A DNA stretch of 64,000 nt from a virus. Shown in pieces: positions 2,924 through 37,801 of this stretch (position 1 is its first letter; the number at the start of each line of letters is the position of its first letter). The notes beneath the pieces were generated by a model, which was not told where the DNA came from, made no database searches, and worked only from the letters and a program-made list of their open reading frames with translations. The stretch is taken from positions 1 through 64,000 of the IMG/VR virus record IMGVR_UViG_3300048672_000851. One strand, written 5' to 3'. Position numbers and translations under genes: made by a program.

Positions 2924-3344
2924 TATCTTTTACCTCTTGATTCACAGCGTAATCCCAATGCTCTTTACATGCTTGGTAGTTATTAAAGTTAGGTAATATA
3001 AAATCTGGGTTAATAAGAAACACACTCTTATCAATCCTTACTACCAACTTCTTATCTTTTAATTCTTTATAGCCCCTTGCACCCCTCTGCTTCTCTGCAC
3101 TACTAAGATTCTTCAACTCCATCTTCACAACATTATTATTATAATCTCGTTGCGCAATTAAATTCCAAATCAACCAATGTGCAGACACGCTTAATTCCAT
3201 CATTATGTGTGCTGTCTTCTTCACTTCATCTTCATTGTACATAGTCATTCCTAATGCAATAAACTTATGCTTAGTTTTATACTTTTTCCTTTCACTTACA
3301 ACCACTTCCTTATCGTCACTTACCTTAACTGTAATCTCGGCCAT
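2916..3344 (-). CDS. RepL-like winged-helix DNA-binding protein, copy 1
   Basis: C-terminal KELKDKKLVVRIDKSVFLINPDF fits the RepL-type LxxxxlI...Y/FxINP signature; start re-called to ATG 3344 after a GAGGT RBS. Confidence 0.55.
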   Translation of the reverse strand: MAEITVKVSDDKEVVVSERKKYKTKHKFIALGMTMYNEDEVKKTAHIMMELSVSAHWLIWNLIAQRDYNNNVVKMELKNLSSAEKQRGARGYKELKDKKLVVRIDKSVFLINPDFILPNFNNYQACKEHWDYAVNQEVKDNE

Positions 3345-3354
3345 ACCTACCTCG

Positions 3355-3575
3355 AAAATACTGAGGGTATTTTTACACCCTTCCAAAAATACTGTGGGTA
3401 TTTTACACTCGACTTAACCTATTGAAAAATAAAAGGTTTTTTCCATATATATACATATATATCGCTGGATTTCTCATTTTTACTCTTATGCTTCACACTC
3501 GGACAGTCGTTCTTCCGTCTATTGGCTCCGCTATCGCTACGCCAAGACACGAACTTACTTTCCTCGTGTGAAGCT
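3355..3575 (-). promoter_or_regulatory. Origin/operator-like module upstream of RepL-like copy 1
   Basis: Palindromes AAAATAC-N5-GTATTTT at 3355 and 3386; (AT)n tract ~3445-3462; stem GCTTCACAC/GTGTGAAGC 3490-3574. Confidence 0.6.
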
Positions 3576-3630
3576 AACACCCGATAGTTATCGTGTAACA
3601 GGATGCATTATAGGAGCTATTAGAAGTAAC

Positions 3631-3727
3631 TACAAAATGTATTTTCTATAGGTAATTTTTAAAATTTTTTATAGGGAAATTAAGGAGATACAAAACGTAT
3701 TGCTTAAGGTAAATTTTGAAATTTTAG
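3631..3727. repeat. Imperfect ~39 bp direct repeat near the probable genome terminus
   Basis: TACAAAATGTATT..AGGTAATTTTTAAAATTTT at 3631 vs TACAAAACGTATT..AGGTAAATTTTGAAATTTT at 3689. Confidence 0.5.
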
Positions 3728-3824
3728 TATGAGTGCATTACTTGATCACTCAAAGAGAAAAACCGACTATCCCCCCCCATATCAAATATGAATTTGAACT
3801 TTTCCCTTCTACAAAATAACAACC

Positions 3825-3849
3825 TTGCACACATACGTGTGTAATAGGA
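3825..3849 (+). promoter_or_regulatory. Early vRNAP hairpin promoter P1
   Basis: CACAC-ATAC-GTGTG followed by TAATAGGA, upstream of first early gene. Confidence 0.7.
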
Positions 3850-3893
3850 TGTAACGTGCATCCAATCATTAATAACCTTATAAGGAATCTACC

Positions 3894-4124
3894 ATGTCTA
3901 ATACAACTCAAGCTCAAGCAAAGACCAAAGGACCAATCGGTATGATCATGTCAGCTATTGCACGTATGTTTGGTGCTGTAGCTCACACTGCTGGTACTGT
4001 TGAAAAGGCAGCAGCATTAGCCAACATCTACATGGCTAATCAAGTTAAGCTAACTCTGTCTGAAAACAATTTAGACAAATCAAATCTTGATGAAAATCAA
4101 GCCACAATGGACTCTCTGCTGTAA
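3894..4124 (+). CDS. Early hypothetical protein
   Basis: AAGGA RBS; lies between hairpin promoter and terminator. Confidence 0.75.
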   Translation: MSNTTQAQAKTKGPIGMIMSAIARMFGAVAHTAGTVEKAAALANIYMANQVKLTLSENNLDKSNLDENQATMDSLL

Positions 4125-35535: not shown

Positions 35536-35808
35536 CAAACCTTACGTATACCGCACTCCCTGCGCTCACTGGCGTTCGCTTGGGGCGCTATATACGTAAG
35601 GTTTGTATAGTGACAACGAGAATAGAAAAAGTCTTGAGGACGAGGCCACGCCGAGGACGCTAAGACTTTTGAGATTCGAGTTGGAACGGTGCAAACCTTA
35701 CGTATATATATGGGAGTAGGGGATCAGTATTTACAAGGGTTAGCGGGGAGTTTTACGGAAGAAAATCTTCCTTTTTAAAGCAAAAAAGGAAGAAAATCTT
35801 CCTTTTTT
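35536..35808 (+). promoter_or_regulatory. Origin/operator-like module upstream of RepL-like copy 2
   Basis: 15-mer CAAACCTTACGTATA x3 (35536, inverted 35591, 35692), TATATATATGG, GGAAGA-AAA-TCTTCC at 35757 and 35788. Confidence 0.65.
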
Positions 35809-35832
35809 ACAACTCAGTGATGTATCCTTGAG

Positions 35833-36288
35833 GTGGCAAAATCAGAAGGTACACACATGACTAATAGTAATATAGTCCTTGCAGAATTGCAACGGGATGA
35901 AGCCCTTTCTATCACTAAGATCCGTAAACCTGTTGGTTTATATAGCTGCATAGGCGAATCAGGTCGAGCCAAAGGCAAGCAAAACATGAGCGCTTTTTCA
36001 GTATTCAAAACATTCTCTGCTGTGGAATCCCTAGAGTTTTTCACTATGGCTGAACATAGGAACAGACTCACTAATTTAGTTGATGCTTTCTACATATCTG
36101 ACTATTCAGAATCAGAAGTAAAAAGATTCAGACAAGCAACTAAATCTCTCATTGAAAAAGACTGCATCAAACTAGTTTCTAAGAAAGAAAAAATATACAT
36201 GATTAATCCAAGATTAATTCTTGGTTCTTTTGAATGTATGGATGAGTTAATCAAGCAATACCAATCCTTAGACAGCAAGGAAAAATAA
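35833..36288 (+). CDS. RepL-like winged-helix DNA-binding protein, copy 2
   Basis: KSLIEKDCIKLV..KIYMINPRL signature. Confidence 0.55.
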   Translation: MAKSEGTHMTNSNIVLAELQRDEALSITKIRKPVGLYSCIGESGRAKGKQNMSAFSVFKTFSAVESLEFFTMAEHRNRLTNLVDAFYISDYSESEVKRFRQATKSLIEKDCIKLVSKKEKIYMINPRLILGSFECMDELIKQYQSLDSKEK

Positions 36289-37301
36289 TGAAATACACTA
36301 ACAAAACTAAAATGTCATTACCAATGGCATTATGGTTAGCTACTGAAACCTATGGTGGAAGTAATAACTTCGACAAAAAACAAATCAGCGTAACTACACT
36401 CTTACGTCCTCTTAAACAGTCTATTCTTGGTTTCCATACCAAAGTAACTGAAATTGACGTATTAGGTGTATTGGCTTCTCGCAAAGGTACTGCTGTACAC
36501 GATGCTATTGAGAAAACCCTTAAACAAACCAACATTTATAAAACAATGTTGAATTTGGGTTATTCTGAAGAAGAAGCTGCTGCTATTCGTGTTAACCCTT
36601 CACCAGAAGAACTACGTTTAAATCCAAACATTGTTCCTCTGTATTCTGAAATCCGTACTGATAAATTAGTCGGTGATTGGACAGTTTCAGGTGAATTTGA
36701 CTTAGTGGTTGATGGTGAAGTTCAAGACGTTAAAAATACCAAAGTGTACTCTTACACTAAAGGTAATAACGATGACAAATACATCAAACAGGGTAGTTGT
36801 TATCGTTGGTTAAATCCAACAATCATTACTAAAGACACAATGAAAATCCAATTCATTTTGGATGACTGGTCTTCTGTAATGGCTTTAAATAGCAAAAACT
36901 ATCCACCACATCAGTTAACAGAAAAGACATTTGATTTAATGTCTTATCATGCTACTGATAAGTTTGTACGAGATAAAATTGCAGATATTGAATATTACAT
37001 GCAGTTTGATCCAGATGAAGTAGAAGATCATCTACCACCGTGTACTGACGAAGACTTGTGGCGTTCTGAATCAGAATACAAGTACTACTCTACTATCGGT
37101 GCTATTCGTGCTACTAAAGCTGGATTTGACACTTTAGCTTCTGCAATGCTTTACATGCAGAATGAAAAAGCTGGTAAAGGTGAAGTACGTGAAATTAAAG
37201 GCCAAGTAAAAGGTTGCTTATACTGCAATGGCTTTGCTCGTTGTAAACAGAAGAACCAATACTTATTAGATGGCACTCTCATTCTTAAGGAACCAGTGTA
37301 A
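36288..37301 (+). CDS. PD-(D/E)xK Cas4-like exonuclease (N4 gp42-like)
   Basis: GTAVH, SGEFD..DVK, Q..Y; C-terminal Cys cluster. Confidence 0.85.
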   Translation: MKYTNKTKMSLPMALWLATETYGGSNNFDKKQISVTTLLRPLKQSILGFHTKVTEIDVLGVLASRKGTAVHDAIEKTLKQTNIYKTMLNLGYSEEEAAAIRVNPSPEELRLNPNIVPLYSEIRTDKLVGDWTVSGEFDLVVDGEVQDVKNTKVYSYTKGNNDDKYIKQGSCYRWLNPTIITKDTMKIQFILDDWSSVMALNSKNYPPHQLTEKTFDLMSYHATDKFVRDKIADIEYYMQFDPDEVEDHLPPCTDEDLWRSESEYKYYSTIGAIRATKAGFDTLASAMLYMQNEKAGKGEVREIKGQVKGCLYCNGFARCKQKNQYLLDGTLILKEPV

Positions 37302-37801
37302 TGACTTTATTTGACTACTTTATTGTTGGTGTAACTATCTTTGCTTTAATCGTAGATTTCTATTTCTTAAATAAATGGCACAACGATGCTATTAAAGAAA
37401 AAGAACTTTTACGTAAACATCTACACGATTATCGTGAAGAACACAGAAATGTTTTAAGACGTTTCGCTGAGTTAGAAGAAGTAGTAGATATTCACAGAAA
37501 TGTTATTACTTCTCAAGTAAACCAGAAATTTGCTATTTTACATAGCAAAGTTAATGGGATTGAAAAAGTGTTGTCTCCGACAACTGTTGTTGAAAAAGAC
37601 TCTGAATCAAAACCTCATTCAAAAGCTTCCTTTTCACCATTGCAAAAACGTATCATTAAACAGGCTTACCTAAAGGAAATCGCATCAGCAACACCTGATT
37701 TAGATTTCTTGGTTCGTGAACTTAATAAGCAACTTGGATTGAATAAATCTAAGCGTTCGTACCAAGGTTATTGGAGCCAAATTAAACATGAAAGATCTTA
37801 A
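37301..37801 (+). CDS. Membrane-anchored coiled-coil protein
   Basis: N-terminal transmembrane helix. Confidence 0.65.
   Translation: MTLFDYFIVGVTIFALIVDFYFLNKWHNDAIKEKELLRKHLHDYREEHRNVLRRFAELEEVVDIHRNVITSQVNQKFAILHSKVNGIEKVLSPTTVVEKDSESKPHSKASFSPLQKRIIKQAYLKEIASATPDLDFLVRELNKQLGLNKSKRSYQGYWSQIKHERS

Follow-up and report, generated by a model that had tools for sequence, protein, structure and literature searches.

A divergent phage genome related to N4 carries two small genes, A and B, whose products are predicted to be paralogous winged-helix proteins. Each gene is preceded by a pair of palindromes, 31 bp apart in both copies and different in sequence. The reading we favor, to which we give about an even chance, is that A and B are MarR-like autoregulators, each binding its own operators.

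Genomic setting of the two genes

The stretch of DNA analysed here (the window) covers the initial 64 kb of an IMG/VR virus record that is 77,494 bp long (G+C 36.6%). Positions 1-168 of the record are repeated at 77327-77494 with at least one mismatch, and since the contig ends overlap by these 168 bases we take the assembly to be circular, with the true terminal repeat collapsed in its 77.5 kb. Conserved proteins share 42-48% identity with their counterparts in cultured Schitoviridae and, judged by its sequence, the genome is that of a divergent, uncultured N4-like (Schitoviridae) phage. The rightward genes (3894-42301) comprise the early, middle and replication genes, and the leftward genes, which run from 3344 across the contig ends and round to 42463, comprise those for packaging, structural proteins and the virion RNA polymerase (3417 aa). 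With the rightward block starting at 3894 and the leftward block at 3344, the 549-bp gap between them (3345-3893) is a divergent junction, which is where the physical ends of N4-type genomes lie. The two genes of interest are:

35857-36288, plus strand: gene A, 143 aa, predicted winged-helix protein with the motif YMINP
3344-2916, minus strand: gene B, 142 aa, predicted winged-helix protein with the motif FLINP

The stop codon of gene A overlaps the ATG of a gp42-type exonuclease gene (36288-37301), downstream of which follow a gp43-type primase, a Sak4-like gene and an SSB-like gene. Gene A occupies the slot of gp41 in N4 and CB1, and the gp41-like protein is unrelated to A. Gene B opens the leftward block and overlaps the start of a gp69-like gene (2923-2177), which in turn overlaps the large terminase gene (2190-586). 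Given the overlaps with the exonuclease and gp69-like genes, A and B are the first, translationally coupled genes of their operons.

Kinship and predicted fold of proteins A and B

A BLASTP comparison of A with B gave nothing useful, and the relationship is visible by profile comparison only: hhalign, run on profiles built from few close homologues each, aligned the two with 89% probability and an E-value of 2e-6 over columns 59-138 of A and 57-133 of B (~77 columns). A merged alignment of both groups has the common pattern R..N...R..K.L..K...NP..L..F. Judged from these profiles, A and B are remote homologues, which bears out the kinship assumed in a first-pass annotation of this DNA. A profile search of 1.8 billion cluster representatives returned 298 proteins at E <= 0.001, nearly all of 85-230 aa. 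Within this family the A-type proteins form a well-supported clade of their own (100/99), and the deeper branches lack resolution. Searches of Pfam, PHROG and NCBIfam gave no family for A or B and recognised few among 98 relatives.

The first-pass annotation had described both genes as RepL-like. Neither protein matches Pfam RepL (PF05732) at E <= 1, and 4 of the 98 relatives match it weakly, the best at 4.4e-4 and all below the Pfam cut-off; there is no match of A or B to the Pfam MarR families, and a single relative of the 98 matches MarR_2 (E 0.008). In the ESM Atlas both proteins fall closest to RepL clusters (PF05732; cosine 0.94), and the Atlas model of B can be superposed on clusters of the RepL and MarR types with TM up to 0.70. 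AF2 models, built on shallow alignments and with pLDDT of 42 and 50, place three helices before a beta hairpin bearing Y/F-x-I-N-P. Structure searches with modest scores (Z 5-6.5; Foldseek E about 0.1) return winged-helix domains only, among them CodY, MarR, RepA WH1, Pi, RepE, ORC/Cdc6 and TubR, which would suit a winged helix in both proteins. A profile search of PDB sequences matched no solved structure. Longer fused forms were sought and none was found, which is weak evidence for a one-domain family. Of the label RepL-like, the winged helix and the proximity to RepL clusters therefore stand and membership of the Pfam family does not; we conclude that A and B are, on the modelled folds, single-domain winged-helix DNA-binding proteins, loosely RepL-like and outside any curated family.

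These affinities bear on a different reading, close to the paired origin/initiator modules of the first-pass annotation, in which the cassettes are the replication origins of this branch of N4-like phages, each with a single-domain winged-helix initiator of its own; a genome would then have two origins, at its end and within the replication cluster. We hold this to be unlikely. It would account for the fact that plasmid replication proteins of the RepL type come nearest, among named relatives, in embedding and structure, that RepA WH1, Pi and RepE are among the fold matches, that one relative weakly matches the PHROG family 'replication initiation protein', and that A heads the replication genes. 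Speaking against it are the lack of a Pfam RepL match in A and B together with the weakness of the four matches among relatives, the one winged-helix domain as against two in RepA, RepE and Pi, and the two palindromes before each gene where three or more direct iterons would be expected. Cumulative GC and AT skew has no feature at 35.7 kb, although it is uninformative in this genome, where skew tracks the direction of transcription.

Each gene is preceded by a private pair of palindromes

The control region of copy A, upstream of gene A, contains the following elements:

35536-35550 and 35692-35706 (direct) and 35590-35604 (inverted), plus strand: 15-mer CAAACCTTACGTATA
35536-35604, plus strand: hairpin 1, with a 14-15 bp stem CAAACCTTACGTATA / TATACGTAAGGTTTG and a G+C-rich insert of 39 nt
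35589-35708, plus strand: alternative long hairpin of 120 nt, with a perfect 20-bp foot that uses the third 15-mer copy
35626-35670, plus strand: inner hairpin, with G/A-rich arms around GGC-CAC-GCC
35702-35713, plus strand: TA tract GTATATATATGG, with TATATATATGG at 35703-35713
35728-35742, plus strand: box TATTTACAAGGGTTA, a degenerate counterpart of the box TATAAATCAATAACTTACAA of relatives
35757-35771 and 35788-35802, plus strand: palindromes GGAAGA-AAA-TCTTCC, 31 bp apart

The two palindromes are part of an exact direct repeat of 20 nt, GGAAGAAAATCTTCC, which starts at 35757 and again 31 bp later at 35788, and the second extends to AAAAAAGGAAGAAAATCTTCCTTTTTT (site region 35757-35807). 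There is no other good copy of them within the 64-kb window. A search of copy A for sigma-70 promoters gave no convincing candidate.

The control region of copy B, upstream of gene B, is organised as follows:

3574-3490, minus strand: long hairpin with the foot GCTTCACAC
3464-3443, minus strand: TA tract GATATATATGTATATATATGG, with TATATATATGG at 3453-3443
3431-3415, minus strand: box TATTTTTCAATAGGTTA
3404-3386 and 3373-3355, minus strand: palindromes AAAATAC-N5-GTATTTT, 31 bp apart
3627-3645, plus strand: weak third B-type site TAACTACAAAATGTATTTT, with 2 mismatches, beyond the hairpin on the early-gene side
within 3627-3655, plus strand: inverted copy of the B box, TTTTCTATAGGT, fused to the third B-type site

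The weak third site apart, no other good copy of the B palindromes was found in the 64-kb window. The box of B includes TTTCAATAGGTTA, which differs by one mismatch from the IHF consensus WATCAANNNNTTR, and overlaps the -35-like TTTTCA of a TTTTCA-17-TAAAAT match that is promoter-like, whichever host and polymerase read it. The first palindrome overlaps the -10-like TAAAAT, and the second stops where the GAGG ribosome-binding site starts. The B sites thus span the region from promoter-like hexamers to ribosome-binding site, as fits an autoregulated operator. On the early-gene side of the B hairpin (3627-3725) lie two AT-rich direct repeats, TTTCTATAGGTAATTTTTAAAATTTT, 57 bp apart; a similar sequence, ATTTTTCTATAG, occurs at the matching place in loci L062, L074 and L075. 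Between these repeats and the first early gene there is a run of eight C at 3773-3780 (eight G on the minus strand).

All elements that the first-pass annotation listed for the two copies, including the 31-bp spacing, are present. The longest word common to the upstream regions of A and B is the 12-mer GTATATATATGG, a length reached in 1% of dinucleotide shuffles, and the same order of elements is also found in N4-like phages from metagenomes that are unrelated to this one. A search for a regulon turned up no other good copies of either palindrome; within the 64 kb analysed, each pair is confined to its cassette. When TATATATATGG and the box were sought as a general promoter motif, no further copies were found in this genome or in the relative G001; the box and the sites, being unique in this genome and in G001 (91% complete), are thus not general promoter motifs. 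One short overlap between the copies was seen: CAGTATTT, at 35726-35733 in the box of A, recurs as the right half of each B palindrome (3381-3388 and 3350-3357), which could hint at cross-talk of B on the control region of A or be chance (8 nt).

A conserved layout with lineage-specific sites

An IMG/VR scan with the gp69-like protein yielded 80 N4-like loci, 69 of which had enough upstream DNA, and the family HMM detects a family member upstream of gp69, on the same strand, in 28 of the 69. In the 10 loci that were mapped, the family gene heads the gp69-terminase block and faces opposite-strand genes across about 250-730 bp. The first-pass annotation had suggested a small mobile cassette as one possible identity of the module. 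Its presence at syntenic sites in related phages is confirmed for the B-type module, which is fixed at the head of the gp69-terminase block in these 28 loci, and because of this conserved synteny we reject the mobile cassette.

Upstream of the B-type genes the elements are ordered as long hairpin, TA-rich purine-pyrimidine tract, box and two sites, and this layout, conserved across lineages, is that of B-type loci at the gp69-terminase block. The TA tract and the conserved box are kept in the strongest lineages. Six lineages have the box TATAAATCAATAACTTACAA, whose core is an exact match to the IHF consensus WATCAANNNNTTR and which lies after the TA tract and before the protein sites; in three of the six it can alternatively be read as an extended -10, TGTTATAAA. 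Repeated or palindromic sites are found in all distinct upstream regions of related B-type loci but one, and the pairs are 31-33 bp apart wherever this could be measured. The sequence of the site is different in every B-type lineage and the paired layout is retained, as in these examples:

lineage sites, palindromic or repeated: AAAGGTACT-N4-AGTACCTTT; ATTACATA-N-TATGTAAT; AGTTAACTTTT
further lineage sites: AGTTATA-N-TATAACT; TAAGGGTA-N6-TACCCTTA

L027 has no clear pair, and L078, a short-contig locus of the L075 group, has lost one repeat. In the near-complete relative G001 no other copies of the relatives' sites were found. That the site sequence co-varies with the protein is the best available support for the view that the protein binds the sites. 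The first-pass annotation had proposed that each protein binds its own sites, and the private 31-bp pair before each gene and the different palindromes at 31-33 bp in relatives are in keeping with this proposal. We infer from these patterns that the proteins bind the adjacent palindromes, that the effect of binding is repression, and that the TA tract and box act as promoter or bending site.

Could the palindromes instead be leader RNA structures, that is, attenuators or tandem small terminators, and not protein sites at all? Both A palindromes were scored as terminator-like, with a 6-bp stem and a T run, and flanking A and T runs lengthen the second A stem to 12 bp. The palindromes of B and of most relatives, however, have A+T-rich stems with no T run, and a spacing kept at 31-33 bp while the sequence changes completely points to a co-varying, sequence-specific partner. 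We consider an RNA role very unlikely indeed.

The position of the B-type module raises a further reading, in which it is a packaging-recognition device like lambda cosB/Nu1 and A is a paralogue with another role; we rate this as decidedly improbable. The winged-helix protein would here bind repeated sites by a bending-protein site next to the genome end, for which we see a slim chance. In its favor, the gene lies directly before the gp69-like and large terminase genes at a divergent junction in the 28 IMG/VR loci and in this genome, an IHF-consensus box stands beside the sites, and the sites are unique per genome. Yet copy A, 32 kb off, has the same layout amid the replication genes, a place in which a packaging site would do harm; at least one record (H63) gives the gp69-like gene itself the annotation small terminase; 41 of the 69 loci, like the cultured N4-like phages examined, do their packaging with no family gene; and, the assembly being circular, the genome end beside the sites is a predicted one.

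The same elements can be placed in an origin, in which the protein would bind the palindromes, the TA tract would melt, and IHF or some other bending protein would occupy the box, a scheme we find doubtful. The order of TA tract, exact IHF-consensus box AATCAATAACTTA (in six lineages), sites and own gene resembles that of iteron-plasmid origins, and the cis elements are unique in each genome. The module can be no general requirement of N4-type replication, since the cultured N4-like phages examined have no family member: a profile search of N4 and CB1 found none, and a tblastn search of 50,697 phage records, with A, B and two relatives as queries, came back without a match.

As to copy A, A-type homologues with 59-74% identity occur on contigs of 74.8-77.5 kb. 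One A-type protein (P0003) and one B-type protein (P0013) are recorded on a contig of 74,835 bp, and close relatives therefore probably keep both copies. G001, which is near-complete, and four fragments have the B-type only.

The long hairpins probably belong to other devices

The first-pass annotation had counted stems among the elements common to both copies; the stems of A and B are not homologous to each other. In copy A, hairpin 1 begins 2 nt past the stop codon of the upstream gene, the middle copy of CAAACCTTACGTATA can pair with either neighbour to form two mutually exclusive long hairpins, and the third copy runs into the TA tract. Against shuffles the region folds as RNA with z -7.0 and as DNA with z -4 to -7.6, the latter value being that of the long hairpin at 35589-35708. 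For the hairpin of copy B the RNA fold has z -5.6, and in both copies the values for either DNA strand are similar to those for RNA. Rfam has nothing near any family cut-off for the hairpin region of either copy, and there is no tRNA there.

The tip of the B hairpin reads GGC-GTA-GCGATAGC-GGA-GCC and contains GCGGAGC, which lies on the strand that the rightward early genes have as template. The loop has just 2 bp on its flanks, against an inverted repeat of 5-7 bp in an N4-type promoter, and the hairpin around it is far longer and imperfect. The B-type stems are wholly different between lineages with the pairing kept, four pairs having double compensatory changes (five sequences). The tips are conserved in relatives as GTA-GCGAAGC-GGGA, GGA-GCGATAGC-GGAA and GTA-GCGGAGC-GAGA, against GTA-GCGATAGC-GGA in B, and in every locus the heptamer motif is on the template strand for the divergent early genes. 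In relatives of the L075 group the stem is a clean one of 6 bp, closed by a GTA loop (pyrimidine at the centre). In L013 the upstream hairpin is a plain terminator-like stem with no GCGRAGC tip, and the family gene is separated from gp69 by six small ORFs of 54-87 aa (L013:1212-3020).

We take the heptamers of N4 itself to be GCGGAGC and GCGAAGC. The virion-polymerase promoter element of N4 is a G+C-rich heptamer with a sheared G:A triloop, and both sequences fit this published description (PMC4496689). Further hairpins with a GCGGAGC heptamer and GGA loop are found in this genome:

8683-8699, 19144-19158, 21911-21931 and 25716-25730, minus strand: clean hairpins with perfect stems of 6-9 bp
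37570-37584, minus strand: weaker hairpin

The four strong hairpins lie in intergenic gaps of the rightward block, in the same orientation as the tip of B, and the GGA hairpins of G001 are likewise oriented. By their sequence, the four resemble virion-polymerase promoters of the N4 type, which here would be scattered across 17 kb and not confined to the left end. Based on its heptamer tip, its strand and the orientation shared with the four clean hairpins, the hairpin of B is probably the leftmost early promoter of the N4 type, or a relative of one, and not part of the cassette. In copy A (35536-35708), neither strand has a stem of at least 5 bp with a GNA loop or a GCGRAGC; our guess is that the A hairpins mark the boundary of a transcript or serve in its processing. 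In both copies the large hairpins are probably devices separate from the regulator cassettes.

In an origin the hairpin would provide for priming, for example by the virion RNA polymerase, next to initiators that do not cross-react, which we regard as improbable. The virion RNA polymerase gene is listed with those that N4 needs to replicate its DNA in vivo (PMC2784036), in line with such priming, but the hairpins of A lack the virion-polymerase heptamer.

Autoregulation as the favored reading

Under autoregulation, A and B, two small paralogues with a winged-helix fold, would bind DNA and act in the manner of MarR-type autoregulators. Each protein is envisaged to bind, as a dimer, the two palindromes before its own gene, and since the palindromes are three helical turns apart the two dimers would be on one side of the double helix. 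Dimer binding would set the level and timing of the protein's own operon (exonuclease, primase and SSB for A; gp69-like protein and large terminase for B). As for MarR-like regulators, palindromic sites lie before each protein's own gene (35757/35788 for A; 3386/3355 for B), and two dimer-type palindromes before the first, translationally coupled gene of an operon have the anatomy of an autoregulated operator and not that of iterons.

Counting against autoregulation are the low confidence of both AF2 models and the lack of a convincing sigma-70 promoter in copy A. The position of the operator relative to candidate promoters, moreover, varies by lineage: the L075 group has a sigma-70-like promoter with an extended -10, TTTACT-17-TGTTATACT (-10 TATACT), whichever host and polymerase it serves, about 80-35 nt before the family gene (e.g. 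L075:2210-2260). This match lies downstream of the repeated AGTTAACTTTT, so that the L075 sites, unlike those of copy B, are upstream of the promoter. In addition, the TA tract and box are unique per genome, which would suit an origin or a packaging site too. A first-gene repressor of its own operon is plausible for homeostasis, and the retention of the module at the genome end is unexplained by that alone.

N4-like phages have been studied for their three-polymerase transcription programme, and little is known about the switching of replication and late/packaging operons outside coliphage N4 or about where replication starts in vivo. Here, a winged-helix family with no annotation in Pfam, PHROG or NCBIfam is defined, and in many uncultured Schitoviridae its gene is accompanied by a conserved control region where early and packaging genes meet. 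Because the two copies have different palindromes, they offer a natural specificity-swap pair for which tests of binding, regulation and origin function are easily designed.

Comparison with known systems

The resemblance to N4 virion-polymerase promoters concerns the tips of the hairpins of B and its relatives, with GCGGAGC or GCGAAGC, a GNA loop and a place on the early-gene template strand; unlike those promoters, B has 2 bp flanking the loop, some relatives have a GTA loop, and A has no such tip. Lambda cosB/gpNu1 offers a parallel for the B-type only, in a winged-helix gene that immediately precedes those for terminase and in repeated sites with an IHF site between the gene and the presumed genome end. 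The likeness is one of layout, not of sequence or profile, and copy A, in contrast to the lambda arrangement, is inside the replication genes.

Among replication proteins, RepL (PF05732) of small Firmicute plasmids is similar in size, is nearest in the ESM Atlas and shares a Y/F-hydrophobic-I-N-P wing motif, but A and B have no HMM match to it and the RepL-like role in phages is putative. RepA (pPS10), RepE (F) and Pi (R6K) are winged-helix fold matches at Z 5.2-6.1, and their dimers bind an inverted repeat before their own gene, with an AT-rich region and an IHF site nearby, in a similar layout. They have two winged-helix domains, however, and act as monomers on several direct iterons, whereas here there is one domain and there are two palindromes.

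The closest textbook case, by analogy, would be MarR/marO of E. coli, where the MarR autorepressor has two operator sites, marO sites I and II. Unlike MarR, A and B lack a Pfam MarR match and any evident ligand or sensing logic, and their module stands in a lytic phage at the head of replication and packaging operons. As in the MarR system, a small winged-helix protein is encoded by the first gene of an operon behind two palindromic sites; these are spaced by about three helical turns, the first lying at the promoter hexamers and the other by the ribosome-binding site.
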